64,000 nt of DNA. Source: Acidobacteriota bacterium. Lineage in GTDB: Bacteria > Acidobacteriota > UBA6911 > RPQK01 > CBDAPI01. Below are positions 10,953 to 62,903 of this stretch, piece by piece. Made by a program: the position numbers and the translations under genes. Every line of letters starts with the position of its first letter. The stretch's first letter is position 1. The stretch lies in the NCBI GenBank assembly GCA_965205615.1, contig CBDBHK010000020.1, positions 86,224-150,223 of the forward strand, given 5' to 3'. Below the pieces are notes generated by a model, which saw nothing but the letters and a program-made list of their open reading frames with translations, did not search any database and had not been told where the DNA came from.

Positions 10953-12652
10953 AATTGTCCAGAGAAGAACAATACGACGGGCTTAAAGAATTAATCATGA
11001 TCGGCAAGGAAAAAGGTTATCTTTCGTACGACGAAGTGGATGATGCCCTTCCCGAGAGCATTCTCTGCTCCGAGAGTTTGGATCGGGTTTTCCACTTTCT
11101 CGGGGCTTCTGGAATTGAAGTGATCGATTGCGAGCAGTTCAAGGTGTCTCTCCAGAAAAACCGTGGGAATGGGGAGAAGGAGAACCGAGACGCCAGGTTG
11201 ACACACGAAAATCTGGGGAAGACGGATGATTCCGTCCGTCTTTACATGCGGGAAATGGGGACGGTGCCACTGCTTAATCGGGAAACGGAGGTTGAAGTCG
11301 CCCAGCGTATAGAAAGAGCACAGATGAATGTGCTTAAAGCTGTCTCACGTTGTCCGCTCGCTGTGGCGGAGCTTGTGGGTTACGGGAGGGATCTCCGTGA
11401 GGGCATGTTTCCCATCACCAAGCTGGTCAACTTCAAGAAAGAAGCACTGACCGAGGAGAACCTCGCAGCCCGCCAGTCAGAGGTGTGCGGCCGAATTGCG
11501 GAGGTGGGGAAATTGCAGGCGAAGGTTTGCCAGGTTCGTCGAGGACTGCGCCATACCAGCCAAGATTCGCCCGAGTACAAACAATTACTTTCTCAGCTGG
11601 CCCGTTACCAGATTCCCATCTTCCGACACATCCGCAGTTTGAATCTGACGTTGGCTACTCAAGAAAAGCTGGTGAGTGTGATTCGAACCACCCTCGAGCG
11701 GATTGTGGCGTTGGAGCGGGAAGGGGAACGGCTGGAGAAATTGCAGACGTCTTCCCTGGCACCGGAGAAAGTTGGGAAAGTGAAGGACCGGCTTCGGCAA
11801 CTTGAAAAGGAGCTGAAGGAGATTGGCGATGAGGTTCAAGCCAGCCCCGGGGAACTCAAGCATACTCTCTCGACCATCAAGCAGTTTGAACTGGAAGAGG
11901 ACATTGCCAAAAAGGAACTGGTGGAAGCCAATCTCCGATTGGTGGTTGCGATTGCCAAGAAATACACCAACCGGGGTGTGCCTTTTTTGGACCTGATCCA
12001 GGAAGGAAACATTGGCTTGATGAAGGCAGTCGATAAGTTCGAGTATCGACGAGGCTACAAGTTCTCCACCTATGCACACTGGTGGATTCGTCAGGCGATT
12101 ACCCGAGCGATTGCCGATCAGTCACGCACTATTCGACTCCCGGTGCATATGACGGAACGGGTCAACAAGCTGATCCGGACTTCTCGAGCCCTCCTCCAAG
12201 AAAAGGGCCGGGAGCCAACTCTAAAGGAGATCGCTCGTGAGACCGGTATTCCTGTCAGCCGGGTTCGACAAACCTTGAAGGTGGCGCAGCAGACGATTTC
12301 GCTCGAAACTCCAATCGGCCAAGAACGAGACAGGCAATTGGGAGACTTCCTCGAGGATAGCCGGGCAGTCTCACCGGCAGACCTGGCGATCAATCTTAAT
12401 CTGAAGGAGCAAACGGCGGCAATGCTGCAAACCCTCGCGCCCCGCCAAGAGCAGATTCTTCGCATGCGTTTCGGAATTGACGACGGTGGGCGATGTACCC
12501 TGGCGGAGGTCGGTCAGCGGTTTTCGGTCACACGGGAGCGCATCCGTCAGATTGAGGTGCAGGGGCTGCGCAAACTGCGGTATTTGTCGCAAAGCAAAAA
12601 CCAAAAGACCGTTCTGAATGCAGCAGGTGGGAACTCTCAGGCCCATTCTTGA
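10953..12652 (+). CDS. rpoD: RNA polymerase sigma-70 (primary sigma factor RpoD-like)
   Basis: Region 1.1 ([13 protein letters not shown]), region 2 ([54 protein letters not shown]), and regions 3 and 4 are all present. The start is probably TTG at ~10953 after GGGAAGGG. The ORF-track start at 10856 is an upstream extension. Confidence 0.85.
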
Positions 12653-14203: not shown

Positions 14204-14968
14204 TCATTTGACCCCAGTGGGCCGGCCCTTCGGTGGTGCTGGTGGAACATCCGGGGTGATCCTCTCAACCTCCTCCGAGATCAACTCTTCCACCTTCCCC
14301 CAGACTTCGGGGTCCAGCCCCATCCTGGTGTGGGCAACCCGAAACAGCTTCTTGAACCAGTGAACTCCGGACGTGTCGATCCTTTTTTCCCCGTAGTCGA
14401 ACAGGAAGTTCCCGATGATCTCCGTCTTCCCTGGGTCTTCAGCCTGGACGCCGGCCTGGCCACGAATGAACCAGCCGTTGGACTGGTACAGATTGGCGGC
14501 GCGAAGAACGTTAGGCGGAATCAACCTGTCATTCCGATCCACACTGTCGATCTGAATGGTCAGGAGCAGGGGAATCTCGAGCTGGTGAAGCTGCCGCGCC
14601 AGCTTCACGACCGCCGCCCCACCAAAACTCTGCCCATACACGACGATGCGGGCATTCTCTCTTTCCGGCTGGCTCAGGGCACCGTCGCTGTCGAGATCGA
14701 AGGCGGCTCTGATGAGACGGATGGCCACATTGCGCTTCGTGTTCTCAACGGTTTCCACCTGCACGGGGAGGCCCACGTCGCGCAGCCTGATGGCCAGCCT
14801 CCGAACGCCCTGGCGATCATCGTCCCAGGAATCCCGTCCCCCCATGAATCCCAGGACCAGCGTCTGGGAGGGTTGAATCGGAGTGGGGATCGTGAAGTCC
14901 TCAAAGGCCTGTCCGTGGGAGTGGAGAACACTCAGGAGCAGGGTGCCGAGCGCCGCGGCGGCGCTCAC
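14204..14968 (-). CDS. secreted alpha/beta-hydrolase (lipase/esterase-like, GQSFGG nucleophile elbow)
   Basis: Signal-peptide-like N-terminus MSAAAALGTLLLSVLHS and a GxSxG motif VYGQSFGGA. Confidence 0.65.
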   Translation of the reverse strand: MSAAAALGTLLLSVLHSHGQAFEDFTIPTPIQPSQTLVLGFMGGRDSWDDDRQGVRRLAIRLRDVGLPVQVETVENTKRNVAIRLIRAAFDLDSDGALSQPERENARIVVYGQSFGGAAVVKLARQLHQLEIPLLLTIQIDSVDRNDRLIPPNVLRAANLYQSNGWFIRGQAGVQAEDPGKTEIIGNFLFDYGEKRIDTSGVHWFKKLFRVAHTRMGLDPEVWGKVEELISEEVERITPDVPPAPPKGRPTGVK

Positions 14969-41143: not shown

Positions 41144-41356
41144 ATGCTGTCAGTTCGACTGGACCCGAAGATCGAGAAGCGCCTGAAGGCTCTGGCCGCG
41201 AAGACGGGCCGAACCAAGACCTACTACGTCCGCGAAGCCATTCTGGAACACCTCGAGGACATGGAAGACCGCTATCTGGCGATCGAGCGACTGGAAAACC
41301 CTGGCCGGAGATGGACTCTGGAAGAAGTGGAGCAGGAGCTTGACCTGGAAGGTTGA
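41144..41356 (+). CDS. relB: RelB/DinJ-family (ribbon-helix-helix) antitoxin
   Basis: 70 aa. MLSVRLDPKIEKRLKALAAKTGRTKTYYVREAILEHLEDMEDRYLA. Its stop overlaps the start of the toxin gene. Confidence 0.8.
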   Translation: MLSVRLDPKIEKRLKALAAKTGRTKTYYVREAILEHLEDMEDRYLAIERLENPGRRWTLEEVEQELDLEG

Positions 41357-41606
41357 GTTTGACGACCGCGCGCTGAAAGAACTCCGGAAACTTGACCCGC
41401 CCGTTCAGAACCGAATCCTCCTTTTCCTCCGGGAGCGTATCGCCACCGCCGAGGATCCGAAACGATTCGGTAAGCCTCTGACGAGAGGGCAACCTATCTT
41501 GTGGCGTTACCGCATTGGACCCTACCGGCTTATTTGCAGGATTGAGCAAGACCGGCTGGTCGTGTTGGTGCTGGCTGCGGGTCACCGCAGGGAGATTTAC
41601 CGTTAA
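41340..41606 (+). CDS. relE: RelE/ParE-family type II toxin
   Basis: 88 aa. WKVEFDDRALKELRKLDPPVQNRILLFL… YRIGPYRLICRIEQDRLVVLVLAAGHRREIY. Confidence 0.85.
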   Translation: MTWKVEFDDRALKELRKLDPPVQNRILLFLRERIATAEDPKRFGKPLTRGQPILWRYRIGPYRLICRIEQDRLVVLVLAAGHRREIYR

Positions 41607-48888: not shown

Positions 48889-50527
48889 CCCACATTCACC
48901 ATATAGGACCCCAAGATTGCTTGTCTGAATCGATGTAAACTACTATAATTAAAGGAGATATAGCACATAAAGGGGGCAAGGAATGGCTCACCCCAAGGGT
49001 GAAGGTGTGAAGGTCGGTTTTGATGGCAGTATCAGGCTTGAGTTTCATGGTGCTAAGGTCACATCGGATGCCGGACTTCTCGCCTATCGTGATCTGGATG
49101 AGGCGTTGGGTTTATTCGATAGTGTGCCCTTCGTGTTTCACGATTCGCGGACCGGGCGCAACATCCAGCACCACCTCACGGCCTTGATGCGTCAATCGGT
49201 ATACAGCCGTCTCGCTGGCTATGAAGATGTCAACGATGCCCATCGCTTATCGGTTGATCCGACGATGCGAAGGATCACCGGAAAGAAGCTCGACGATAAG
49301 AATGCCGCCAGCGCCAACACGATGGGTCGATTTGAGACCCAGATGCTGTCCGTCGAGAACAACCTGCAAGCCCTTTCGGAAGTCAATGGTCGATGGGTGG
49401 AAAGAGCGCTGCAGAAAACAACTCATCGACGCATCATTCTGGATATGGACAGTTCAGCTAGTCCGGTCCACGGCGAGCAAGAAGCCTCTGCCTACAACGG
49501 GCATTTCGGATGCACTTGCTACCATCCGCTGTTTTGCTTCAACCAGTTCGGAGATTGCGAAGGTTTCATGCTTCGGCCCGGCAACGTGCACAGTGCGGAC
49601 CGTTGGAAGGAGATGCTGGAACCAATCGTGGCTCGGTACGAGAAGAAGAAAGTCCGCAAATACTTTCGGGGTGATGCAGCCTTCGCCAAGCCAGAGATTT
49701 ATGAATACTTGGAGGAGAAGGGCTTTTTGTATGCCATCCGGCTTCCCGCCAACCAGGTGCTTCAAGAAAAGATCGAACACCTGCTGACCCGACCGGTGGG
49801 GCGCCCACCCAGAAAACCCGTTGTTTGGTTGGCCGATTTCAAATATCAAGCCGCCAGTTGGGACCGGCCTCGTCGGGTGATTGCCAAGGTCGAGTGGCAT
49901 CGCGGCGAACTCTTTCCGAGAGTCGGTTTCATCGTGACCAACAGGAGCGCACGAGCCCAAGGGGTGGTTCACTTTTACAACGGTCGCGGCACGGCTGAGC
50001 AGTGGATCAAGGAAGGCAAGTATGCCTTGAACTGGACGCGGTTGTCCTGCCAGCACTTTGTCCCGAATCAGGTGAGGTTGGCTCTGTTTGTTTTGGCCTA
50101 CAACCTGGGCAATTTTCTGCGCCGTCTGGTCCTTCCCAGAAGAATCAAACACTGGTCCCTTCGAACCCTATTGGCCAAGTTGATCAAGATCGGAGCGAAG
50201 GTGGTTCACCATAGTCGAATCGTGACGTTTCAGATGGCGGAAGTCGCGGTCAGCAAGGAGGTATGGGCCGAGATGTTATCTCGGATTGACCGCTTGAGAT
50301 GGATCAGAGCCTAGCACCAAGTGTTTCTGATCGAATGGGTGGAGAGGTGTCTCCACTGATCAGATTTCGGCAAAGGCGCCTGGATAACTCTGGGCTTAGA
50401 GGCCCTTTTCAGGCGGAAAGATGCCGAGGGAATCGTTGACGCGAGGGTGGAGGGCTGATAAGTTTTGATCATTCATCACCGGGAGGTCAGAGGAAATCGG
50501 ATCCGAAGTTGATATGAGGAATGTCGG
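48889..50527 (+). mobile_element. second, distinct IS1380-family element (1639 bp) nested inside copy 2, with a 5-bp TTCAA target duplication
   Basis: Terminal inverted repeats CCCACATTCACCATAT and CCGACATTCCTCATAT. TTCAA at 48884..48888 and 50528..50532 occurs only once in the uninterrupted copy 1. Confidence 0.8.
48983..50314 (+). CDS. DDE transposase (IS1380-family, distinct from the 7376..8827 type)
   Basis: 443 aa. IRLEFHGAKVTSDAGLLAYRDLDEALG…YEDVNDAHRLSVDPTMRRI is homologous to, but diverged from, the other IS1380-like transposase. Confidence 0.85.
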   Translation: MAHPKGEGVKVGFDGSIRLEFHGAKVTSDAGLLAYRDLDEALGLFDSVPFVFHDSRTGRNIQHHLTALMRQSVYSRLAGYEDVNDAHRLSVDPTMRRITGKKLDDKNAASANTMGRFETQMLSVENNLQALSEVNGRWVERALQKTTHRRIILDMDSSASPVHGEQEASAYNGHFGCTCYHPLFCFNQFGDCEGFMLRPGNVHSADRWKEMLEPIVARYEKKKVRKYFRGDAAFAKPEIYEYLEEKGFLYAIRLPANQVLQEKIEHLLTRPVGRPPRKPVVWLADFKYQAASWDRPRRVIAKVEWHRGELFPRVGFIVTNRSARAQGVVHFYNGRGTAEQWIKEGKYALNWTRLSCQHFVPNQVRLALFVLAYNLGNFLRRLVLPRRIKHWSLRTLLAKLIKIGAKVVHHSRIVTFQMAEVAVSKEVWAEMLSRIDRLRWIRA

Positions 50528-51849
50528 TTCAAGCGAATCGTCTGACACTGAGCGCGAGCCAGGGGGGTCTGCTTCAGTCCGAGACGACGCAAGGCGTGCA
50601 TGAGCATGTAGGCGGCGGAGGACAGATACAGCCGGAGTTGATTGGCGCGCATCGTTGCCGCGCTGGTCCGGTCGGCGAACAGACCCAACTGCTGTTCTTT
50701 TATGCGGTTCTCCATGTCGCCCCGCGCACAGTAGAAGTCTTCGTAGAGCGCGCGGGCCCCCAGGCGTTCCGGCGACAGGGAGGTGACGACGAATCGGGGA
50801 TTGGCGCCTTTGTCCAGGAACTCGGCCTTGCCGACGACGCGTCGCTCCGAGGTCCAACTGTGGCGAGTCCGGTAGCGGAAATCCTTGAACACCCGCGCCG
50901 GTCGCCCGGTGGCGTTGAACTCGGCTTCGGCCTGAGTCATCGCTTCGGCGCTCTCTGACTTGAGCCGATCATTGTTGGCCAACCCCATCACGTAATCCAC
51001 GTGATGGTCTTCACACCAGCGGAGCAAGTCATCCCGGCAAAAGCCCGAGTCGGCCCGGATGACGATCGAGACCTCCGGCCAGCTCTGCCGAATCCGGCCG
51101 ACGATCCGTTCCAGTTCCTCCACCGATCCCGCGGCCCCATCGATATTGGAACACCGCAACCGGGCGCACAGCAGATGCTCCCCCGAGAAGATGTACAGCG
51201 GGAGATAACAGTAGTGGCGGTAGTAACCGTGAAAGAACCGGCCTTCCTGCTGGCCATGGATCGGGTCGTCGGTCGCATCCAGATCCAGCACCATCTCCTC
51301 GGGCGCCGATTCGTGGGACTCCACGAAGGCATCCACCATCCAGCCGTCGATCCGGTCCGGGTCCATCGCGATCTTCTTGTACCGCTCCTGCTCATCGACC
51401 TCGGCGCCGGTCAACTCCAACCGGTTCAGCGTACACCTGCCCGCCAGCGCCTTCCCCCGATCTGAGGCCTGCCGCCGCCTCTCCCCCAACGGATCGGCCT
51501 TATTCACCGCCACCGCCAGCATCGGATCGGTGCGCAACTGATCATGATCGTTCAGATCCTCGTACCCCAGACAGAGTCCGTAGATGCGCTGCCCCAACAA
51601 CTCCTCGACCGTGTGTTCGATCAACCGCGGATCCCGGTGATCCCTGAAACACTCAGCCAGTCCGGCGATCAGACCCGTCCCCCTCTCGACCTCTCGCAAC
51701 AGCAGCACCCCTGCATCGGAGGTGATCTTCCCGCCGTCGAACCGCGCCTTCACTTTGCGTTGAAATAGTCCGTGAAATTCGAACCTGGCTTGTTTACACT
51801 CTGTTCTCATAAGGGCCGCCTCCGTTTGCGTGTGAAAACGTTCATTCAA
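50528..51849 (-). CDS. DDE transposase of IS copy 2, C-terminally truncated by the nested insertion
   Basis: The ORF-track frame 50476..51849 matches the 7376..8827 protein up to …QCQTIRL. It then reads into the nested IS terminus. Confidence 0.75.
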
Positions 51850-51855
51850 AACGCT

Positions 51856-53214
51856 TTATACCAAACAGGGCGGCCTTTTCAGGTCCCATCGGTGAGAAAT
51901 GGCGGCTAGAGAGGATACCAGTTCCTGGGCTGCCTTTGAGAACCCGGGGATTAGCCGATACCCAGGGTAGATCGGCCGCTCCGTGTCTTCTGCGTTTCGC
52001 AACGCAGTCAAGACGAGGAACTTTACCAGTGAAGCCTGGAACTCCTCTTCACTTGAGAATGCAACTTCCAGGTGCGGGGACCGCTCATACAGTCCGGCGA
52101 TCTGCTTGACCGCAAGGTCCGCGTAACCTAGCAGCGCCTCTGGATGAAACAGATCGCTATGTCGAGAGAGCGGCCGGTATTCCGGTTGTCCCCCAGGGCG
52201 CTGGATCGGCATGGGATCGTTGATCAACGCAGCGGCGAACGCAAAGGCGTCCTCATCAACAGACTTTGCACCGGCGATCAAGACGAGCCGCCACGCGAAG
52301 TACGCTGGAAGCCCGGCGGAAAAACGAAGTCCCGAGAGCCCGTCGCCAACGGAGACCAACGCGCCAGCGATTCGTAGCACGGCACGTGCGCCAGGGGGCC
52401 AATCCTCTGACGCTAAACCACTCGCCAGAAGCTCGGTGCCCGTCATCAGGGGCGCGAAAGCGCTCTCGAATCGGAGCGCTTCTCCTGCGATCTCGTCGCT
52501 CTGGATCTGACCGCCTTCGCGCAGAGAGCTAAGCGAGCTGACGCGACCTGGCACGTCCGCCTGTATCTCCCGGACAGCTAGACGAATCAGACGATTCAGC
52601 GTTCGTGTGTCCCGCGACGACGCCAGCCCCATGCCAGCCTCGAACCATGAGGCTTCGGGCTCCACGGCCCCGAAAGGAGAGGTATCCTTCAGCACAGTCA
52701 ACGCGCGATTGGTCGTCCGGGGCGGCGCACCGTGGCTACCGAACAACGATAGAGCGTCCTCCAAAGTGTCCACTCGGCATTCGATGTCCTCAATCCGTGC
52801 ATCTGACATCGGCGGCTTCTCGCGTCCTGAGGGATTCTCCAGGAAGTCGCTGACCGGATTGTCCGCCCTGCTCGGATCTCGGTCTACGTCTGATAGCAAG
52901 TCAGCAAGCTGCCGGGTGAGTTCCGCGCATCCCTCCGACGTACGCCAGTCGTAGACATGAGTAGCATATGACCGGAGATCGAAGGGAATGTCCTTTCGGT
53001 CTTGCGCAATGAGTATCGTCCGGTTCCTAAGAACGTGGCGTACGCCAAGCTCGTAGAACACATTCGGATTCCGATCGGTGAGGTCGGCCAGAACCACCCA
53101 GGCTGCGTCGAGATCCTGAACGATCCCCTTGATGAGATTGCCGCGTGTTGCGGTCGATCGGCGGCACTCGTAGCCCGCAGCTTCGACAGCAGGCCGTATG
53201 ACCTCCTCGAACAC
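51856..53214 (-). CDS. hypothetical protein with an N-terminal nucleoside 2-deoxyribosyltransferase-like / TIR-like domain; the native C-terminus is replaced by IS-encoded residues
   Basis: N-terminus VVLADLTDRNPNVFYELGVRHVLRNRTILIAQD (the family pattern h-ADLT..NPNV-YELG-AH). The last ~15 aa (AISHRWDLKRPPCLV) are encoded by the terminus of IS copy 2. The IS630 left end lies 17 bp upstream of the start. Confidence 0.55.
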   Translation of the reverse strand: MFEEVIRPAVEAAGYECRRSTATRGNLIKGIVQDLDAAWVVLADLTDRNPNVFYELGVRHVLRNRTILIAQDRKDIPFDLRSYATHVYDWRTSEGCAELTRQLADLLSDVDRDPSRADNPVSDFLENPSGREKPPMSDARIEDIECRVDTLEDALSLFGSHGAPPRTTNRALTVLKDTSPFGAVEPEASWFEAGMGLASSRDTRTLNRLIRLAVREIQADVPGRVSSLSSLREGGQIQSDEIAGEALRFESAFAPLMTGTELLASGLASEDWPPGARAVLRIAGALVSVGDGLSGLRFSAGLPAYFAWRLVLIAGAKSVDEDAFAFAAALINDPMPIQRPGGQPEYRPLSRHSDLFHPEALLGYADLAVKQIAGLYERSPHLEVAFSSEEEFQASLVKFLVLTALRNAEDTERPIYPGYRLIPGFSKAAQELVSSLAAISHRWDLKRPPCLV

Positions 53215-53231: not shown

Positions 53232-54398
53232 TAGTGTACTGTCCGGAAAGTTCTTGTAGTTAATAGTCAGGGTACTTTTCTATCCTTGGGCATGGCAAGA
53301 CCACATATTCGACTCGATCTACCCCAACAACACAAAGCAATTCTACAGTCCTGGCTGCGGGCCTCCAACACCAAAAGAATCCTCGCCGAGCGAGCCCAGA
53401 TGATCTTACTGTGCGGGGACGGACTCACAGCAATTGAGGTCTCCCAAAGGCTGTCCAAGCGCCTGGGCAGCATACAGAAGTGGCGAAAGCGCTACCTTGA
53501 GGTGGGGCTATCAGGGTTGGAGGATCAGCCCCGTTCGGGTCGACCACGGCGACTATCGCCAGCGAAGGTACGAAAAATTCTCAAGGCCACCGTGCAGACC
53601 ATCCCCAGGGAATCGACTCATTGGAGCCTGCGCCTCATGGCAGAGTATGCCCAAGTCAGCAAACATCAGGTGACTGAAATCTGGAAAGCCGCAGATCTTA
53701 AGCCCCACCGGATTCGCTCTTTCAAGATCAGCAACGATCCTGATTTCGCCGAGAAGGTGATCGACGTGGTGGGCCTGTACATGGACCCGCCCGACAACGC
53801 TTTGGTTTTGTCTGTAGACGAAAAAACTCAGATTCAGGCTCTGGACCGAACCCAGCCCATGCTTCAGCTCAAACCCGGGCAGGTCCAACGCAGAACCCAC
53901 GATTACAAACGCCACGGGACGGCCAGTCTGTTTGCCGCCTTCGACGTGGCCACCGGTGAAGTAATGGGCCGAATCACGAAACGGCATCGGGCCATAGAGT
54001 TTTTAGCCTTCTTACGTCAGATCGAGCAAGTCGTCCATCCAGATCTGGACGTTCACCTCATTCTCGATAACTCGAGCACTCACAAGACCCAGAAAATCCG
54101 AAACTGGTTCCTACGACGCCCACGTTTTCATCTCCACTTTACTCCTACCAGTGCTTCCTGGTTAAACGCTGTCGAAACCTGGTTTTCACAGCTTGAGCGG
54201 CGTTCCCTTTACCGCAACTCTTTCACTAGTGTTCAAGAGTTGAGGAACGAAATACGAAGATATATTCGAGTGCATAACCAACACCTGGCCAAGCCCTTTA
54301 AGTGGCGGGCCAACGCTACTTCGATCTTAGACAAGGTCGAAAGAGCTCAAAGATCCATCGATCAATGTTAACAACAGGAATTTCTCGGACAGCACACT
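53232..54398 (+). mobile_element. IS630-family insertion sequence (~1.17 kb)
   Basis: Terminal inverted repeats TAGTGTACTGTCCGGAAAGTTCTTGTAGTTAATA and TGTTAACAACAGGAATTTCTCGGACAGCACACTA. A single transposase gene lies inside. Confidence 0.8.
53286..54371 (+). CDS. IS630-family transposase
   Basis: 361 aa. A helix-turn-helix N-terminus and a DDE core (…LDNSSTHKTQKIRNWF… TPTSASWLNAVETWFSQLERR) typical of IS630/Tc1. Confidence 0.9.
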   Translation: MGMARPHIRLDLPQQHKAILQSWLRASNTKRILAERAQMILLCGDGLTAIEVSQRLSKRLGSIQKWRKRYLEVGLSGLEDQPRSGRPRRLSPAKVRKILKATVQTIPRESTHWSLRLMAEYAQVSKHQVTEIWKAADLKPHRIRSFKISNDPDFAEKVIDVVGLYMDPPDNALVLSVDEKTQIQALDRTQPMLQLKPGQVQRRTHDYKRHGTASLFAAFDVATGEVMGRITKRHRAIEFLAFLRQIEQVVHPDLDVHLILDNSSTHKTQKIRNWFLRRPRFHLHFTPTSASWLNAVETWFSQLERRSLYRNSFTSVQELRNEIRRYIRVHNQHLAKPFKWRANATSILDKVERAQRSIDQC

Positions 54399-54530
54399 AG
54401 TACACGATTGCGAAGTCGAGAAGGGCATTATGACGAAGCAAGTCCGTCCACCAGATCGGTCGGATTGTTCGAGGTCTTTAGCCACCGTTAACGCCAGTCG
54501 TCTGGTGGCCGAGCGCCCCAGCCGCCGAAA

Positions 54531-54821
54531 TCACCCCTCCTCGTTAATCTCCGGGACGGGTTGGATTATCAGTTTCTCCTTCTTCAGATGCAGTTCCCTG
54601 AACCCTGCGACAACGGAAGCCAAGAGCTCAAGCTCATCCCTGCTAACCTGGCTCTTGTCACGGCGGTAGCGCCTTGCCGCAGCATAGACATCCTTCGCTT
54701 TGAGGAACTTGCCGGCCTTAGATTTCCAAACGAGGATGTCTCGTTTTCCGTTGGGCGCTAGGCCGCGATCGAATCCGAAAACAGAGTTCGGGTCATCGAA
54801 GACCTGGGGAGGTTTGGGCAC
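54531..54821 (-). CDS. small hypothetical protein (96 aa). Its start and first ~20 codons lie in a 60-bp segment duplicated at 54937..55000
   Basis: ORF only. No family recognised. Confidence 0.3.
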   Translation of the reverse strand: MPKPPQVFDDPNSVFGFDRGLAPNGKRDILVWKSKAGKFLKAKDVYAAARRYRRDKSQVSRDELELLASVVAGFRELHLKKEKLIIQPVPEINEEG

Positions 54822-54825
54822 CTGG

Positions 54826-54936
54826 CCAAGCCCTTTAAGTGGCGGGCCAACGCTACTTCGATCTTAGACAAGGTCGAAAGAGCTCAAAGATCCATCGATC
54901 AATGTTAACAACAGGAATTTCTCGGACAGCACACTA
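54826..54936 (+). repeat. duplicated 3' terminal 111 bp of IS630 (copy of 54288..54398), bracketed by a 60-bp direct repeat
   Basis: Identical to the IS630 right end through …CACACTAG. The flanking segment GGCCGCGATCGAATCC…GGTTTGGGCA occurs at 54767..54826 and again at 54937..55000. Confidence 0.8.
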
Positions 54937-54968
54937 GGCCGCGATCGAATCCGAAAACAGAGTTCGGG

Positions 54969-55827
54969 TCATCGAAGACCTGGGGAGGTTTGGGCATCCG
55001 CCTGTCTCATCAGGTAGATCGCCTCAATGATTTGATCTTCCGATACAGAGTCCCCTCGGAGCAATCTAGCCATAATGCTTTGGATCCTGACAAGATCTGT
55101 GACTCCAAAGACCCGGGTGTAAGCGGCCAGATCGGGTTCTGTTGGGCGGCCCAGGTGGCGACGTTGCAGATGCGTGAGCATCTCGTGAAGGAAATGAGCA
55201 AGCGCATTACAGCCTCCCTCCCCGGTGTCTTTGGGAAAGAAGGTCATCCCAGTTTCCTGATGCGTGAAAAAAACCTGAGTGTCCGCCCGGATCACTGAGA
55301 ACACACAGCATGTCAGCCCTGGGTCGATTCTCCGTCAGCTTTTGCCTCAACCTCTTGAGAGAGACATCGGACCTAAATGCAAAACCCGCACTCAGGATGC
55401 CAGACGATCCTTGGCTACCACTTTGTTCGAGGAAGTTCGATTTCTCGGCAAGACGGCGCACGCTTTCGGCCTTCAAGCCGATATCTCTTAGATCTTGAGC
55501 CCTCAGCGTTGACTTGACCTCGATTGTGGCCTGCACTGACTCAACGAGGATGATCTTCCCTCTCTGCCCCCGATCTCCTGCCAGAGGCGAGTTTGCACGA
55601 TCGCACACGATTACATCCTGCTGCTTGCTCCATTCGTCGTGCGCGTTTACAACCAAACCCGTACACACCCCATATCGACCGTGCAACTGCTTCTCCAGGA
55701 AACGGATCAGGATATCTTCTCGAATGTCGCCTTTAGTGCCTGGATGAGGTACGGGCAGATCTCGGTCGAACTCGGCAAGCATGGCCTTTCGATCAGCTTC
55801 CAGAATCTCTTCAATACGACGGGACAT
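54969..55827 (-). pseudogene. NERD-like / PD-(D/E)xK restriction-endonuclease-fold protein, apparently frameshifted
   Basis: ORF 55207..55827 has GTKGDIREDILIRFL… DVIVCD… IILVESVQATIEVKS, giving D…E-V-K spacing. An overlapping out-of-frame ORF 54969..55304 continues downstream. Confidence 0.45.
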
Positions 55828-56210: not shown

Positions 56211-56435
56211 ATGAAGACAGTCCAGATTAGCGCTCGAATCGACGGGACGCTCAAGCAGGCAATTGAGAACTATTGCCGTTCGCGCGGCATCGTGATCAAC
56301 CATTTCGTCCAGGAAGCACTGTTCGATCGACTCGAGGAGTTGGAGGACATCGAAGATCTCAAGAGAATCCGCCACGAACCGACCCGCCCTCTTGCAGACG
56401 TCCTGGCAGACCTGAAGCGCGATGGCAAGCTATGA
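56211..56435 (+). CDS. ribbon-helix-helix (CopG/RelB-like) antitoxin
   Basis: 74 aa. MKTVQISARIDGTLKQAIENYCRSRGIVINHFVQEALFDRLEELEDIEDLKRI. It overlaps the downstream toxin gene. Confidence 0.75.
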   Translation: MKTVQISARIDGTLKQAIENYCRSRGIVINHFVQEALFDRLEELEDIEDLKRIRHEPTRPLADVLADLKRDGKL

Positions 56436-56685
56436 AATCGAAATCACCCGGACAGCAGAAAAACGGTTCAGAAAGCTGCCCAGCCAGGACCAAGGCCGGT
56501 TAGCGAAGGCACTCCTGGCGCTGGCCACAAATCCCCTGCCCCGCGGAGCCAGAAAGCTCCAGGGCTACGAGGATGTCTTTCGTATCAGGGTGGGTGCCTA
56601 TCGGATCCTCTACAGCATTGAAGAGCGCAGGCTGATCGTAATCATCCTCAAGATCGGACATCGGCAAGATATATACAGCCGTTGA
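56422..56685 (+). CDS. RelE/ParE-family type II toxin
   Basis: 87 aa. YEIEITRTAEKRFRKLPSQDQGRLAKAL… YRILYSIEERRLIVIILKIGHRQDIY. Confidence 0.8.
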   Translation: MASYEIEITRTAEKRFRKLPSQDQGRLAKALLALATNPLPRGARKLQGYEDVFRIRVGAYRILYSIEERRLIVIILKIGHRQDIYSR

Positions 56686-56797: not shown

Positions 56798-59700
56798 TTA
56801 CCTTGGGGGCTCCAGGACAGGGAAGGCCGTCAGGGTTCCCACGTCTCCTGGAAACGGATTGGAAGGGTCGTCGTTCTGGAGCAGGGTCACGGCGATGATC
56901 GGGAAGGGGCTCGAAATAGCCAGCAGACCTCGCATCTCGTCGATTCCCTCTACGTCCGGAAACAACTGGGTTACGAATTGAGCGGTGTGCTGGCCGGCCA
57001 GCAGTTCCAGCTCCCGGGTCGCTAACTCGGCTCCCGACGCGTCCTCGAGTCTCAGCTCCATGAATCCGCCCCCTCCTCCTCCGGCCGGACCCGGCACCGG
57101 GTTGGCAAGAGCGACACCCGTCTCGGCGTTGCCGGTGGTGTCGACGAACAGGAAGAAGCTGGTCCCTGGCCGCGACGCCGGCACTCCAGATTCGGTCTCC
57201 AGGAGCCCCGAGGGAAGATCAACCCTGGAAAAAACGGCTGAGCCGCCCAGGCCCTCCTCGGAGGTCACCCGCGCGTAGCCGGCCTGTATGGCCGCTTGGC
57301 CGCTGGTTTCCAGGACCCTGGACTGCCCCGATCCCAGCTGAAAGTTAAACGTCGAGTCGGTTCCCAGGCCGTCTATCCTGAGGACCATCGGATCCCCGTT
57401 GGGGTCGAAGACGTCCAACTGGACCGGTACCTGGCCGGCGGCCACGTTGGCCAGGTTGATCGCCGTCTGCAGTCCAATCGGCCCCGCCTGCCCGTTTCCG
57501 ATCTGGGCAAAAAAGAACTGGATCGGTATCGCGCCCTGTGGTTCCGGCCCCAAAAACTCGGGAGCTCTCCCCTCCAGCACGGGGAAGGCGGCCAGGGTCG
57601 GGACTTCCTGGGGGAATTCGACTCCCGGGGCATCATTCTGTCGCAAGGTGACCAGCGCGATCGGATCCAAGCTCCCCACAGTCAGGACGCCCCGCATCTC
57701 CGGGGCCTGCTCGACATCCGGGAAGAGCTGGGAGACAAAGGCGGCTTGATGCCGGCCCGCCCCCAGTTCCAGAACCGTCTCCCCCAGCAGGGTGAATTCC
57801 GGGTCGAAGAGCTTGAAAAACATCTCGCCCGGGAGGCCTGTCGGGGAGCTGCCTGCGCGAAAGGTCTGCTCCGAAGGAAAGACCTGACGATCGACGACGT
57901 TGACGATGGCCAGCCCCGTCTCCAGGTCGCCGAGCGAGTCCACGAACAGAGTCGCTTCCTGCAGCCACTCCGACGCCGGCACCCCAGCCTGGTAGAGGAT
58001 CGTCCCCGTGGGCACGTCCCGGCGTGTGAAGATCCCCGTCACGCCGATGCTCGCTCCACCCCGGATGCGAGCGTAGCCGGCCTCGATTGCGCCGGTGCCC
58101 GAGGTCGTCAGATTCCATGTCTCTCCAGGTCCCAGGCTTGCTGAAACGGACGAGACCTTGTTTTCTCCAGCCGGATCCTGACCATTCAGGTCCAGCTCCC
58201 ACCGTCCTCCTGTGGGATCGAAGAAATCGATCGTGAAAGCGGCGTGCCGTCTCTCGAGAGTGCTGGCGACATCGATCTCGGTGCTCAAAATGATATTGCC
58301 GGTCTGACCGTTCCCTACCTGGGTGAGGTACTGGACGTGCTCGAGGGACTGCAGCTCAAAGGCACCGATATCCACGGCGGGGCCGAAGACCCGGTCTTGC
58401 TCGTTCAGGTCGAGGTCACCCAGGCCGCCCGGGGGATCATTGTTGCCGGCATTGATGCCGGGGGAGCCGGCCAGCAATCGATAGTCGCCGTTTTCAGGAT
58501 CGGCGAACAAGGGATCGACGCAGATCAGGTTATTGTTCCCCGGCAATCTCTCGGGGTGCGTCAGGTCCGTTCCATTCCCGTAAACAATGGTATTGTCCAT
58601 CCCGGCGAACAGGAACCGGATGCCGTTCTCTGCGTTGTTGGCGATGGTCAGGTTCGTGAGTTGGATATCAGGGCCGTCACCATTGATGCCGTTCTGGAGG
58701 CCATCCGCAATCAGTGAATCCGTAAGGGCGAACGACGCCTCGAAGGCGCTGAGGTAGACCTGTGCCGAATTGCTGCTCTCGGTTCCCGAGTTGTCCAGCC
58801 AGGTGTTCCTCCTGGCCGTGAGCTGGCTCCCGCTGCCGGCTGAAAAAAAGCTCCGGCACCCCTGGGTCTCCCCGCCCCCTGAAACCGATTCCCCCGCATA
58901 AAGTTGTCGTGGAACTGGACCTGAGCGTTCTCGAATGCATCGATCTCGGCGGCCCCGCCGCTCACATTGCCCTCAGAGATCACAGTGTTGTTGAGAAAGA
59001 CGTTGTCCGTGATCTCGAGCGTTGTTTCGCCTGTGCCTCCTGCCGAAAGCCCGCCTCCGATGGCGCATTCCGTCGCGGCACTCCACCACATTGTCCTCAA
59101 ACCGGTTGTTCAGGATCTGAATCGATGAGTTCCCGGTCGCGAAGAGATTCAGTCCACCACCCACCGAGTTGTGCAGAACGGAACGGGCCTCGTTTCCGAT
59201 GAACCTGCAGGAACTGACCTCAACACTTGCATCCTGGCCGGGCGAGATTTCTACGGGCCCGCCGGCTGAACTGCTGCCCTCGGCAACGTTGCCCTCAAAA
59301 ATACAGCCGCGCATCACGAGACTGGATGCGTCGTTGACGTCGGCGGTGATGGCTGACGCAAAAGGCGCTTCGGAAGATCCGTCGTCGAGCCCACCCCTGT
59401 TATCTGTGAAATTGCAGCCAATAATCTCAACGGTCGCGGTGCCGGAAGCGATCAGAAACATTGCCGCCCCCGCCTGCTCGCTGAACCCTTCGGTAAGCGT
59501 CAGATTCTCCAGCCGCAGCTCTCCGCTTCCGATGGCGCTGACGGACAGTATCTCGCTGCTGGTCCCACCGCTAAGGTACGTCAGCGAGGCACCCGGCGTC
59601 ATTTCGCTGAAAGCACCGTTCCATCCCCCCGAAATGGTCAGGGAGCGGTTGTCGTTCACGGCCACACTGGTTTCCCCGTCGTCGAAGACTCCCTCCTGGA

Positions 59701-59854
59701 TGCGGATCTCGTTGTCACCGCCCACTACAACCGCAGCGGTAACAGCGGACTGGAGGGTGGTGTGTGTTCCGGCCGGTCCGACCGTGAAGACATCGCCGAA
59801 CACGAGCGTGGCGGACAGCAGTAAAGTCATTGCGAAGCAGCAGAAACGGATCAT
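56798..59854 (-). pseudogene. secreted right-handed parallel beta-helix protein with two C-terminal ~250-aa repeat modules, paralog A, with at least two frameshifts
   Basis: The signal peptide and beta-helix N-terminus (ORF 58973..59854) fall out of frame into ORF 58711..59100, then resume as ORF 56798..58600 (…DPLFADPENGDYRLLAGSPGINAG…DIGAFE, followed by QVGNGQ… modules). It is collinear with the 59851..62903 paralog. Confidence 0.7.
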
Positions 59855-62800
59855 GGCGAGGTCTCCTCGAGTACTGGAAAGGCAGTCAAAGTCCCGATGT
59901 CCTGGGGAAAGGCAGTCGCCGGATCGTCGTTCTGAAGCAGGGTCACGGCCACGATCGGCACCAGACTCGAGACTTCCAGCAGGCCTCTCATCTCGTCGAT
60001 CCCTTCGACCTCGGGGAAGAGCTGGCTGACGAACTGGGCGGTGTGTTGACCCGTTCCCAGTTCCAGCTCCCGCTCGGCCAACAGCTGACCGGCCATATCC
60101 AGCAGTTTCATGTCGATCAAAGCCATCTCACCGGCGGGCACGGGACCGGGATTGGCCAGGGCCAGACCGGTGTCGGCGTCGCCCGTGGTGACCACAAAGA
60201 GGGAAAAAGAGTTGAGCGGACGTGCCGAGGGCACTCCGGATTCGGTTTCCAGAATCCCGCTTGGGACATCTATCCTCCGGAAGACCGCCGAACCCCCGAC
60301 TCCCTCCTGCGTGGAGACGCGCGCATAACCGGCTTTGATACCCCCAAGCCCATCCGTCCGCACCACCCTCGACTCGCCTCGGTTCAAATTAAAGTTGAAA
60401 GAAGAGCCCGAGCCGAGACCTTCCAGGGTTAAGACCAGTGGATCTCCCGAGCTTTCAAAAAAATCGATCTGTACGTCACCGTCCTGGAAAATCGTATTGG
60501 CAACGCTGAGAGAGGTCTGAAGACCAATCCCGCCCAGCTGTCCGTTGCCGATCTGGGCAAAGTAGTAGATGTCGGGGTCGATACCGGAAGGCGTCTGGCC
60601 GGCTGGTACAGGCGACCGACCGGAAAGGACCGGGAAGGCAGCAAGAGTGGGGACTTCATCGGGATAGTCCAGCCCCGGCCTGTCGTTCTGGCGCAAGGTC
60701 ACCAGCGTAACGCAGTCAGTGCCGTCCATGCACTCTGCGGTCAGAACGCCCTGCATCTCCAGAGCCTCTTGCGACTCGGGGAAAAGCTGGGAGACAAAGA
60801 GCGCCTCGTGCTCTCCCGGCTGCAGCAGCTTCTGTGTCTGATCGATCTGATTGAACTCGGCGTCATAGAGCGTCAGGGTCAGGTCCGCATCCCTGATGAA
60901 TTCCGAGGGATCAATGGGGTTGACCATGGCCACACCGGTTTCGAGATCACCCAGAGTATCCACGAATAGTGTCGCCGACCTGACCCCTGCACCACTAGAA
61001 GCAGGGATTCCCGCCTGATAGAGGACCGTGCCGCTGGGGCCGTGTCGCCGCGTAAAGATGCCGGTCACGCCAGTGTTTTCGCCGCTTCGAATACGAACAT
61101 AGCCTGCTTCTACGTCCCCAGTCCCGAAGTCTCCAGGCTCCAGCTCTCGCCCGGATCCAGCAGGACAGAGACCGAGGACAGTCTGTTTTCCCCGGCCGGC
61201 AGTTCTCCCTTCACGCCTACCTCCCAGGGAGCCCCCGAGGAGTCAAGAAACTCGAGGGTGAAGCCTTCGGCTCCCTCACTTGCCGTGCTCGCAGCATCGA
61301 TCTCGGTGCTGAGGACAATGGTGCCGGCCTGACCATTCCCGACCTGGGCAAGGTACTGGATGGTCTGATCGGAGGGGGCGACTTCATAAGCCCCGATATC
61401 CACCCGGCCGCCCCAGTCCCGATCCTCCCCGTCCAGGTCAAACTCTCCCAGACCTCCGGGTGGGTCGCTGTCGGCGACGTCAACCGCAGGGGAGCCGGGC
61501 ATGAGATGGTAGTCGCCGTTTTCGGCGTCCACAAAAAATGGGTCGGTTTCGACCAGGTTGCTTCCAGTCTCTGTTCCCTCATCCGGAGTGGAATTGCTCC
61601 CATTGTTGAAAACGATTGAGTTGTAAAAACTCATGGTTCCGACTCTGAACGTTGAAATCGCAGACCCTGCGTTATCGGCAAGCGTGAAGTTTGAGAGACG
61701 AAGAATTGACTCCTCGTGATCGGTTATGCCACTAATCCCTCCTGCGTTCGATCCGGCAACCACCGAGTCTCTCATGATCAGTGCCGAGGAGTTGGCGGAG
61801 ATAAGGGAAAGACTATCTGACCTCTGGTTAACGAGATCCAGGGTTTGGAACCAGAAGTTCCGCTCCGCTGCAACTCGAGCTTCGTCTCTGAGCCAGATCG
61901 CAGCACCCGGGCCGCTTGCTGAGCCCTCTCCCATGGCCTGGTTGTCGACGATGGTGTTGTAGGAAAAGCTCCCTTCCGCCTGACCCTCTACCTCAAGGTA
62001 GACACCCGCACCCGTGCTGGAATTGGTGGAAGTCACCGTACGGTTGCTCCGAAAATCGTTGCCTTCAACTAAAAAACTCGACGTGTCCCGAGCGGCCATT
62101 TCCATTCCACCACCGGCAGTCGTAGAGCCGCCCGAAGTCACCGTGTTGTTCCTGCAGGTGTTCCCGGTCAGAGTCAAACCACTGTTGTCTTCCAGGAAGA
62201 CTCCGATCGCCCCTCCCCCGGCGCTCCTATCCTGGCTCTCGACCAGGTTGTCGTGGATGCTGTTGTCACGTACGGTGACCGTCGAGGTTCCCCGTGTGCG
62301 CAGGTTGACCGTGGCGCTTGCATTGTTGACGGCGTCAATACGATTACCGTATATCTCGCAGGAGTCGACGATGAGGTGGGTGTCCCCCCGCAGGAGGGCG
62401 TGGATGGCCGAGCCTCTCATCTGGGAGTTCTGATCATTTCCGACCAGGTTCTCGACGATCTGAAGATCCAGCAGCTCAACCTGGCTCTGCTGACAATCGA
62501 TTCGGATGCCCGCTCCCTCTTCCATGTCAAACCCGTCCCGCACCGTGAGGTTTTGGATAGAAACCACGGAACCGGTTCCAATTCCCGAGATATCGATCAC
62601 GCGGCTGGCCATGTCCCCTGACAAGGCTGTAAGAGAAGCATCCTCAGTCTGAACATCGAAGGTGTCGTTCCAGCCGCCGCTGATCACCACATCACCGGTC
62701 AGATCCTGTGCCGGGACAACCACAGTCCCGCTGAACATGCCTTCCTGCACCCGGATCTCATTGTCCCCTCCCGTGGCGACCGCCGCGTCGACCGCGGACT

Positions 62801-62903
62801 GCACGGTGGCATGGGCTCCGGAGGGGCCCACCGTGAAGACGTCGGCGAGCAACGGCGTGAGACTAAACTGCAGAGCAAAGCAGAAGCAGAGGATTCGGGA
62901 CAT
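59851..62903 (-). CDS. secreted right-handed parallel beta-helix protein with two C-terminal repeat modules, paralog B (~1010 aa), with a single frameshift near 61110..61130
   Basis: ORF 61110..62903 has a signal peptide MSRILCFCFALQFSLTPLLA, beta-helix repeats, and ends at …DPFFVDAENGDYHLMPGSPAVD… then QVGNGQAGTIVLSTEID…. ORF 59851..61068 continues after a G-run. Paralog A is continuous at this point (TSGTGAIEAGYARIRGG…GIFTRR). Confidence 0.7.

Follow-up and report, generated by a model that had tools for sequence, protein, structure and literature searches.

In an Acidobacteriota bacterium, two adjacent genes for large secreted proteins, here called paralogs A and B, are both disrupted by frameshifts, and these appear to be mostly real gene decay and not phase variation. 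The overall explanation that we favour, which seems to us probable though well short of certain, is that the pair encoded tandem secreted beta-helix proteins with glycan-binding tails of the ASRAH fold, and that these proteins were lost stepwise in this lineage. The modules that form the tails make up a very large family which is uncurated, the ASRAH superfamily itself being already known. Throughout, "the window" means the whole stretch of 64,000 nucleotides that was analysed.

Results

Within the window, A and B are adjacent minus-strand paralogs of about 1017 aa each, B coming first and then A (Table 1), with a 4-nt overlap between the start codon of A (ATG) and the stop codon of B (TGA), read as ATGA at 59854-59851. 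They are old tandem duplicates: reconstructed B aligns with the intact A allele P0008 at 47% identity over about 1017 aa, and the same pair is present at the equivalent locus in other Acidobacteriota species. The architecture proposed in a preliminary description of this DNA (in both proteins a signal peptide, a beta-helix and a cap, then a tandem pair of modules of some 250 aa) is confirmed, with modules of 235-255 aa, and the ORFs, together with three-frame translation, bear out that both paralogs are frameshifted where that description had placed the breaks. The module motifs are likewise there, the starts being YLAQVGNGQAG or YFAQIGNGQLG and the ends ...GQHTAQFVSQLFPEVE...MRGLL...VTLLQNDD...TLTAFPVLE. 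The genes adjoining the pair code for an AAA_21 ATPase and a ParE/antitoxin.

Table 1. Features of paralogs A and B in the window (positions are those of the window)
Feature	Position	Strand	Basis
Paralog B, pseudogene, 1017 aa reconstructed	59851..62903	-	two ORFs joined; orthologues P0002, P0003
B predicted signal peptide, MSRILCFCFALQFSLTPLLA/DV, Sec type, without lipobox	62844..62903	-	read from sequence
B right-handed parallel beta-helix passenger	61515..62843	-	PF13229, AF2, Foldseek
B choice-of-anchor Q cap, DPFFVDAENGDYHL...GSPAVD...DIGAYE	61380..61514	-	NCBIfam NF041518
B module 1, residues 515-760, frameshift inside	60625..61361	-	module HMM and alignment
B lesion, 1 nt missing, CTG GGG AC/GTA	61113..61119	-	identical in L001, L011, L012
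B module 2, residues 779-1012, the sequence modelled	59869..60570	-	AF2, Foldseek to 1nc7 TM1070
Paralog A, pseudogene in the window strain; intact allele P0008, 1018 aa	56798..59854	-	ORFs, strain alleles
A predicted signal peptide, MIRFCCFAMTLLLSATLVFG/DV	59795..59854	-	read from sequence
A lesion 1, extra T, GGAA[T]GCGCC, not a homopolymer	59067	-	absent from L001, L011, L012
A lesion 2, T7 versus T8 in intact alleles	58843..58849	-	T7 in window and L012; T8 in L001 and L011
A cap, DPLFADPENGDYRLLAGSP...DIGAFE, homologous to B choice-of-anchor Q	58355..58516	-	alignment with B
A module 1, P0008 residues 507-760	57575..58336	-	module HMM/alignment
A module 2, P0008 residues 779-1014	56813..57520	-	module HMM/alignment

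B is read in two ORFs whose frames are one base apart, of 597 aa (62903-61110) and 405 aa (61068-59851), a stop codon (TAG, 61112-61110) following directly after the lesion; P0002 and P0003 are intact, full-length orthologues at 64% identity, and the N-terminal helix of the signal peptide is kept across the alignment. At the site of the lesion the orthologues have GGC GAY, so that losing the C of GGC would by itself yield the GGGG of B. The "single-base slip in a G-run" of the preliminary description is thus correct as to the single missing base, but a slip in a G-run is not required.

Paralog A falls into two ORFs, of 293 aa (59854-58973) and 600 aa (58600-56798), and an open stretch of 132 aa that lies in another frame (59109-58714). 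When its lesions are placed by DNA alignment to the intact allele of a sister strain, the interval 58600..59100, said earlier to hold at least two further disruptions, contains exactly two. The first of these, seen in the window only, leads to a stop at 58975-58973. Mutual compensation of the +1 and -1 lesions was considered and rejected, because this stop falls between them, within the shifted stretch.

Three other ENA assemblies, L001, L011 and L012 (11x, 18x and 35x), are 99.6-99.8% identical to the window. The B lesion is the same in all four, and B has suffered a further 2-nt deletion in L001 and a 1602-nt deletion in L011. Intact alleles of A, 1018 aa and 1020 aa long, occur in L001 and L011 respectively, and the T tract of A divides the four (T7 in the window and L012, T8 in L001 and L011) just as 8 SNPs and a 7-nt indel do. 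The 9 kb in common with the sister strains has two tracts that are T8 in them, and both are T7 in the window, so the window's own T7 calls could be consensus errors; other 1-nt indels unique to the window lie nearby, at 55267-55273 and at about 54985. The window-specific changes, including the unique T insertion in A, could be consensus or assembly errors.

Whether orthologues in related genomes are intact had been left to be checked. Some are (both of L002; L003; L010), but 7 of the 11 A/B-family copies in other Acidobacteriota species are broken: both copies of L004 carry in-frame stop codons, an IS21 element in L005 and an IS3 element in L007 split their copies, and those of L006, L008 and L009 are frameshifted. 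Long ORFs cover 78-88% of the flanking DNA, a normal coding density (which is a crude gauge of the background pseudogene rate), and the neighbouring genes give full-length Pfam profile matches. The synteny CM/PDT, AAA_21, paralog(s), ParE is retained in L002-L004, where the neighbours are 69-88% identical as against 47-69% for A and B. The setting is IS-rich, with copies of IS630, IS21, IS3 and DDE_Tnp_1_4. The remaining 53 kb of the window carries unbroken ORFs, the longest of 1108 aa, as well as full-length Pfam matches, and the idea that the whole window is error-ridden was rejected on account of them.

For the N-terminal region, PF13229 (Beta_helix) has a precomputed match on P0004, which is the window's 597-aa ORF, and TIGR03804 stays under its cut-off on B (13.5 vs 19.45). 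AF2 folds residues 20-440 of the A allele as a beta-helix with a pLDDT of about 90; at full length it is confident for the helix only, the modules coming out poorly with a shallow alignment of 13 sequences. The best PDB matches of these N-terminal 440 residues (Foldseek, probability 1.0) are glycan-active beta-helix proteins, namely PL6 alginate lyase/chondroitinase B, AlgG and CE8 pectin methylesterase, together with phage tailspike depolymerases, but sequence identity to them is 9-14% and no CAZy family is assignable. Sequence relatives of the helix are scarce (15 matches in a word-indexed search), and NCBIfam gives a weak N-terminal match of B to PRK10531/YbhC (27 bits vs a cut-off of 436). 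To judge from the modelled fold, the helix may be enzymatic in nature. The cap motif of B resembles choice-of-anchor Q proteins above the cut-off of NF041518 (33.7 bits against 25, E 3.1e-8, residues 464-508, profile positions 16-57 of 58); in NCBIfam naming, a choice-of-anchor domain precedes alternative anchoring signals.

Identity between the two modules of a protein is 39-46%, and each module matches the module HMM at an E-value of about 1e-100. Nothing covers the module when reconstructed B is searched against Pfam and NCBIfam, nor when 37 modules and 38 distant multi-domain relatives are searched against Pfam, and PDB sequences searched with the module profile gave chance-level matches only, 1nc7 being absent at E <= 10. 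The module had been described as impossible to place in a known family, and this stands for curated families (Pfam, NCBIfam, PDB sequences); however, it belongs to a large family, with 11,553 cluster representatives at E <= 1e-3, and its predicted fold resembles that of TM1070/ASRT (ASRAH). It is usually C-terminal, in tandem and repeated 2-4 times, behind varied N-terminal partners (Sortilin/BNR, NosD/beta-helix, FG-GAP, subtilase, BACON, glycosidase-like). The copies that were located in genomes are all from Acidobacteriota.

Structure prediction of one module, suggested in the preliminary description as a check, gave a confident AF2 model for B module 2 (pLDDT 94.1, pTM 0.88) with two beta-sandwiches. 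Its best PDB fold matches by Foldseek, in an alignment that took in about half of the module, are TM1070 (1nc7_D; E 3.2e-5, probability 1.00, TMt 0.70, rmsd 3.6 over 129 columns) and ASRT (2ii8_F; probability 1.00, TMt 0.71); the second sandwich was assigned by strand pattern and weak internal similarity (hhalign P 9e-4, probability 23%). A nearly invariant Asn, N27, closes strand E17-27 of the module, and the Asn of G(D/H)xDTGLAxAN (the ALAN motif) closes strand E134-141 in its second half. The strand-1 Trp of ASRAH is never present in the alignment of 37 modules, which have Tyr/Phe instead (YYFAQ / YFPQ), and at E <= 1 the Pfam ASRT model matches neither B nor any of these modules.

Discussion

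The ASRAH superfamily comprises the Anabaena sensory rhodopsin transducer and Thermotoga TM1070 (Pfam ASRT, formerly DUF1362; De Souza, Iyer and Aravind 2009, PMC2739507). Its hallmark is a nearly invariant Asn that ends strand 2, before a tight turn; where its domains are secreted they come in dyads or tetrads, joined to enzymes, and are predicted sugar binders (PMC2739507). A sugar or another small molecule would be bound in a cleft on one of the sheets. The module would share with it an eight-stranded beta-sandwich that, as modelled, is superposable on 1NC7 and 2II7/2II8, and the Asn closing strand 2 in both module halves; the two modules of two sandwiches each that stand behind the beta-helix in A and B recall the secreted dyads and tetrads. 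It differs in that the Pfam model does not match its sequence significantly, in having Tyr or Phe for the strand-1 Trp, in its signature FPQxADGGGYxT ([YF][LF]xQ[VI]GNGQxG in the A/B clade), in the conserved His of GxHxAxFVxQL, in the fusion of two sandwiches into a fixed unit of about 235 aa, in its partners (beta-helix, propellers, proteases) and in its phylum, which is Acidobacteriota for all copies located in genomes. The preliminary description would have given up the novelty of the module had it matched a well-characterised domain with high confidence; we do not count ASRAH as such a match, because this superfamily is known but has been characterised only computationally.

A second family to be compared is DUF5719 (PF18986, actinobacterial, function not known), which a handful of remote members of the module family match near or at the gathering score with their first 50 residues or so. 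P0092 is the sole distant relative that passes (29.0 bits against a gathering threshold of 26.2), but the matches span about 50 of the 319 profile positions. DUF5719 does not match B, and among isolated modules it matches 1 of 37 (E 2e-4), with none for the other 36 or for the modules of the window. A literature search for DUF5719 returned no papers. We presume that it may be the actinobacterial ASRAH-dyad lipoprotein that De Souza, Iyer and Aravind described in 2009.

According to the explanation we favour, each product would be exported by the Sec route and would consist of the beta-helix, the cap and then two modules of about 235 aa, whose four sandwiches (a "tetrad") may bind glycan. The tetrad might keep the helix passenger on, or target it to, a polysaccharide layer, be it the cell's own envelope, an exopolysaccharide or an external matrix. 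More generally the modules would act as a C-terminal retention or targeting cassette, and a generic one, given that in thousands of proteins these tandem modules stand behind widely differing passengers. The same placement after very diverse passengers would also suit another reading, to which we give appreciably less credence without dismissing it, namely that the tandem modules are a sorting or secretion signal or a cell-envelope attachment signal, like the C-terminal domains of T9SS, and not glycan binders. It would fit this reading that they come after a "choice-of-anchor" domain and that one module has a weak Por_Secre_tail match (E 0.0065); but a unit of about 235 aa present 2-4 times far exceeds the known sorting domains in size, the ASRAH sandwich, a predicted ligand binder (PMC2739507), is its best match in fold, and beside the A and B genes no export machinery turned up.

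As to the loss itself, B would have been inactivated by the 1-nt deletion before the four sampled strains split and would have gathered more lesions since, and A would have been inactivated later, on the branch of the window and L012, by the change from T8 to T7, with a second lesion in the window strain. We consider it unlikely that the lesions are sequencing or assembly errors and that both genes are truly intact in the organism. It is true that short homopolymers lie at two of the three lesions, and the two T7 calls and the neighbouring indels peculiar to the window also speak for errors. However, the B lesion is common to four separate assemblies, in two of which B bears other deletions besides; the GGC GAY of the orthologues means that no long homopolymer is involved at this site; the T7 of A is found in two assemblies, in agreement with the SNP phylogeny; stop codons and IS elements elsewhere are not indel errors; and the rest of the window is intact. 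Homopolymer error, which the preliminary description had kept as an option, is excluded for B and could account only for those changes in A that are peculiar to the window.

Phase variation, another of its options, finds no support among the four strains compared, and we think it even less probable than error that these are contingency loci at which slippage in G or T runs reversibly switches surface proteins. Such loci might be expected of secreted or surface products in a family that is often inactivated, and the T8/T7 tract of A is indeed polymorphic among near-identical strains; but the tract of B is only G4, is invariant in the four strains and probably results from a lost C, and the congruence of T7 with the SNP tree indicates a single event and not repeated switching. 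Moreover, the added lesions are at sites that are not repeats (the T at 59067, the 2-nt and the 1.6-kb deletions), and the stop codons and IS insertions of other species are irreversible. The least credible proposal, to our mind very improbable indeed, is that B is expressed by programmed -1 ribosomal frameshifting at G GGG, the P-site tRNA-Gly re-pairing one base back. The re-pairing, from GGG 61118-61116 to GGG 61119-61117, would be perfect, with a stop two codons on, and the lesion is kept in four strains; yet P0001, P0002, P0003 and L002-L010 are single-frame here (GGC/GGN GAY), so that the shift is not a conserved feature, the site has no X XXY YYZ heptamer, and 2 of the 4 strains have further destructive lesions in B. 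Of the options first listed, decay is the one that finds support, from a B lesion fixed in four strains with extra lesions in two of them, from a T7 in A that follows the SNP tree, and from nonsense codons and IS insertions in other species.

Decay of this kind is like the formation of pseudogenes in accessory surface-protein genes generally, with stepwise lesions along the strain tree and mechanisms that differ between species; nothing sets it apart as unusual except the high share of broken copies (7/11 at the species level) against normal-looking flanks. A wider suggestion, which takes in the cause of the repeated loss, is only tentative, and we would not wager on it: the modules would be a very abundant and hitherto unrecognised extracellular ASRAH-dyad cassette (>10,000 sequence clusters), which Acidobacteriota and other environmental bacteria would employ as a general C-terminal means of displaying or retaining a wide range of exoenzymes and binding domains on polysaccharide. 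Some lineages, the one sampled here among them, would preferentially discard the proteins that bear it, the displayed proteins having become liabilities or being left without a target.

Conclusion

The pseudogenes of A and B are ordinary in themselves, and they offer a clean record of stepwise gene loss among near-identical strains; the case also illustrates that frameshifts in assemblies of long-read metagenomes are not all to be dismissed as homopolymer errors. The module, for its part, is predicted with high confidence to be a compact double beta-sandwich, and it occurs in more than 11,000 protein clusters without a Pfam or NCBIfam model. Were it curated and linked to ASRAH, thousands of secreted proteins now called "hypothetical", most of them from environmental metagenomes, would gain an annotation for their C-terminal third, and there would be a testable hypothesis for the deployment of exoenzymes, that of glycan-mediated retention at the surface.

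Gene pair and architecture

Paralogs B and A form an operon-like pair, since the ATG of A overlaps the TGA of B (ATGA), and each is broken into several open frames (see table). Reconstructed B is 1017 aa long and shares 47% identity with the intact A allele and 64% with intact orthologues of 1021-1024 aa. A Sec-type signal peptide, recognised by reading the sequence, opens both proteins and is followed by a beta-helix region, the cap DPxFxDxxNGDYxL..GSPAxD...DIGAxE and two C-terminal modules of 234-256 aa (39-46% identical to one another); in B, the cap scores as a choice-of-anchor Q domain, above the NCBIfam cut-off. ORFs, alignment and this cap match confirm the tandem architecture announced in the preliminary description, and the module motifs named there are present in A and B. 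A poly-Gly stretch in A module 2 (PAGGGGGGF; window 57056-57073, L011 10998-11003) shows an in-frame 6-nt length polymorphism, giving 1020 aa in the sister strain L011 and 1018 aa in the other strains.

Features of the paralog pair and of neighbouring elements, in window coordinates
Feature	Position	Strand	Basis
B ORF 1, 597 aa	62903-61110	minus	ORF calling, three-frame translation
B ORF 2, 405 aa, frame differs from ORF 1	61068-59851	minus	
A ORF 1, 293 aa	59854-58973	minus	
A open stretch, 132 aa, second frame	59109-58714	minus	
A ORF 3, 600 aa, first frame again	58600-56798	minus	
AAA_21/ABC-like ATPase, 199 aa	63004-63603		
ParE-family toxin	56422-56685		
Antitoxin-like ORF, 74 aa	56211-56435		
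Second ParE-like sequence	41343-41600		
IS630-family element	53236-54396		
DDE_3 transposase of this element, 361 aa	53286-54371		
DDE_Tnp_1_4 transposase copies	7376-8827; 50476-51849; 51856-53214		
3' end of IS630-family element; its 109-nt copy	54300-54408; 54837-54945		
63-nt direct repeats	54758-54820; 54934-54996		

The ATPase lies directly upstream of the paralogs, a position kept in L002, L003 and L004 (loci of other species); it is 86-88% identical across species, well above the paralogs, and is truncated in L011, where 55 nt are inserted and 7 nt deleted. The ParE toxin, with its upstream antitoxin-like ORF, lies directly downstream of A, and the pair is syntenic in L002-L004; the second ParE-like sequence is 35% identical. 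The IS630-family element is absent from the sister strains L001, L011 and L012 and is thus a recent insertion; together with the DDE_Tnp_1_4 copies, the last two in tandem, it marks the genome as IS-rich. The 109-nt copy, 97% identical to the 3' end of the adjacent element, is bracketed by the perfect direct repeats. A segment of ~176 nt within 54758-54996, missing from all three sister strains, breaks up the 179-aa ORF that follows the DUF6602 gene; either a genuine IS-mediated rearrangement or an artefact of assembly may explain it.

The lesions and their history

In B, one base is missing in CTG GGG AC|GTA (61119-61113), leading to a stop TAG at 61112-61110. Orthologues read CTG GGC GAT/GAC GTG at this site, so that the lesion may be a lost C from GGC, itself making the GGGG run: the single-base change proposed earlier stands, and slippage in a pre-existing G-run is not required. 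Further disruptions of A, suspected around 58600..59100, were located by DNA-level comparison with the intact allele of L001 (99.65% identical; its 1018-aa product is P0008). Relative to it, the window carries an additional T at 59067 (GGAA[T]GCGCC) and T7, not T8, at 58843-58849. Mutual rescue of these +1 and -1 changes is ruled out because the shifted stretch holds a stop at 58975-58973.

Sister copies of the locus, 99.6-99.8% identical to the window, come from three more assemblies of different ENA samples (coverage 18x for L001, 11x for L011, 35x for L012). The B lesion is present in all four copies, with an extra 2-nt deletion in L001 (61441-61442) and the removal of 1602 nt in L011 (62740-61139), indicating that B died before the strains diverged and that its decay continues. 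L001 and L011 have an intact A, L012 an A with T7 alone, and the window one with both T7 and the T insertion. The split of window and L012 from L001 and L011 is backed by eight SNPs and a 7-nt indel; the T7 allele agrees with it, which points to a single inherited event. A died later than B, in one branch, and its second hit came afterwards.

With one genome scanned per species, nine loci came up, every one in Acidobacteriota MAGs. L002, L003 and L004 share the gene order of the window (chorismate mutase/prephenate dehydratase fusion, AAA_21 ATPase, paralog or paralogs, ParE/antitoxin), with 69-88% identity for neighbour genes and 47-69% for A and B; since L002 has orthologues of both, the duplication is old. 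Among the 11 copies in L002-L010, four are intact (two in L002, one each in L003 and L010), so that the question of intact orthologues receives a divided answer: both L004 copies have an in-frame stop codon, an IS21 element (IstA/IstB) splits that of L005 and an IS3 element that of L007, and frameshifts number one in L006, two in L008 and one in L009. The ends of the proteins P0001 and P0006 are likewise out of frame. The L004 stops, on a complete 5.75-Mb Acidobacteriota chromosome (OZ240092.1), lie at 11633-11635 and 14846-14848, one in place of the Trp of PGETW, a parallel inactivation of both tandem copies by substitution. The flanks of all these loci are 78-88% covered by long ORFs (median 240-400 aa), a normal coverage that speaks for genomes without gross erosion; the family seems to be lost preferentially, as far as so crude a flank comparison goes.

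We consider gene decay well supported as the cause of the frameshifts: the B lesion is in four of four copies, two of which have additional deletions in B, T7 follows the SNPs, and stops and IS elements break the genes elsewhere. Homopolymer sequencing error, suggested at the outset, is contradicted for B by the recurrence of the lesion in four assemblies, and miscalled homopolymers do not account for stops, IS insertions or kilobase deletions. Elsewhere the window is not riddled with errors: ORFs reach 1108 aa, and Pfam profiles match from end to end (e.g. DUF885 1-532/532, TctA 1-423/423). Within the 9 kb shared with the sister strains, however, the window has T7 at both sites where those strains have T8, so some consensus error is possible among the changes found only there (the inserted T at 59067, the T7 of the DUF6602 gene at 55267-55273, an additional C near 54985). 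In the DUF6602 gene, whose end holds this T7 (T8 in L001, L011 and L012 alike), the product becomes 206 aa versus 179 aa (L001) and 201 aa (L012), and the 4-nt overlap with the following gene is upset; as for the T7 of A, either a true mutation or a miscalled homopolymer could be behind it. Phase variation, also raised initially, conflicts with the inheritance of T7 as one event along the SNP split and with the fixation of the B lesion in four copies, and programmed frameshifting is likewise contradicted by specific results.

Passenger and C-terminal module

When the intact A allele is modelled at full length, confidence is confined to residues 20-440, a right-handed beta-helix. Its PDB neighbours, at 9-14% identity (phage tailspike depolymerases, PL6 alginate lyases, chondroitinase B, AlgG epimerase, pectin methylesterase), indicate a predicted glycan-active or glycan-binding helix, and fix neither family nor catalytic site.

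No Pfam or NCBIfam model spans the module in B, in 37 isolated modules or in 38 distant multi-domain relatives, among which any covering family would rank top; a few distant members reach or approach the Pfam DUF5719 threshold over ~50 residues. Profile search of PDB sequences gave chance-level matches alone. A 13-module profile matched 157 proteins in a word-indexed search, and exhaustive HMMER with a 37-module profile over 1.84 billion cluster representatives found 11,553 at E <= 1e-3 (7,179 at <= 1e-10; 2,188 at <= 1e-30). The best of these typically have 600-1700 aa and 2-4 tandem copies, usually C-terminal, behind highly varied N-terminal partners: Sortilin/BNR propellers, NosD and beta-helix domains, FG-GAP and SBBP repeats, Ig-like and BACON domains, subtilases, Vgb lyase, NHL repeats and glycosidase-like domains. 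The common form reads FPQxADGGGYxT...N, the A/B clade [YF][LF]xQ[VI]GNGQxG, and all sequences of the 13-module alignment keep the His of GxHxAxFVxQL. Common soil-type proteins among the distant relatives (P0136-P0285) often lack the N-terminal part of the first copy and carry, after the last full module, a partial one of ~45 residues at the extreme C-terminus (FPQIADGGGYxTQxILL...G.DG.PL), an arrangement suggestive of strands complementing one another from copy to copy; A and B, by contrast, have exactly two complete modules.

AlphaFold2 models B module 2 (37-sequence alignment; mean pLDDT 94.1, pTM 0.88) as all-beta, with ~17 strands. The top Foldseek match in PDB is Thermotoga TM1070 (1nc7; E 3e-5, probability 1.00, target-normalised TM 0.70, 14% identity), with a further match to 2ii8, the Anabaena sensory rhodopsin transducer (probability 1.00, TM 0.71); each of the two alignments takes in roughly half the module. 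It was from TM1070 and this transducer that De Souza, Iyer and Aravind (PMC2739507) derived the ASRAH superfamily, described as an eight-stranded sandwich with a Trp in strand 1, a nearly invariant Asn closing strand 2 and a predicted sugar-binding cleft, whose secreted versions always come as dyads or tetrads, with amidases among the fusion partners. The module likewise has this Asn in both halves (N27; ...LAxAN motif) and is modelled as a dyad, with two modules making up a tetrad; unlike ASRAH it has Tyr or Phe in place of the Trp. No significant sequence match of the module to ASRT was found, and its halves resemble each other weakly (hhalign P 9e-4); ASRAH membership rests on structure, not sequence. 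The view that the module could not be placed thus holds for curated models and yields as to its fold and its 11,553 relatives; we class it as a new uncurated family that would work like ASRAH domains and is probably related to them.

Meaning

Whereas fold and architecture of the A/B proteins are shown, glycan binding and retention by the modules are what we infer from the fold, the published ASRAH predictions and the C-terminal place behind many unrelated passengers. The protein would be exported by Sec, its beta-helix would bind or act on polysaccharide, and four ASRAH-like sandwiches would anchor it to a glycan layer or direct it there; the main rival to such retention is that the module is a sorting signal. 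The A/B pseudogenes are ordinary, and the strain series records their decay unusually clearly. The module, an abundant uncurated domain family with a predicted ASRAH-like double-sandwich fold, implies no categorically new mechanism; it is useful for annotation and yields a testable hypothesis.
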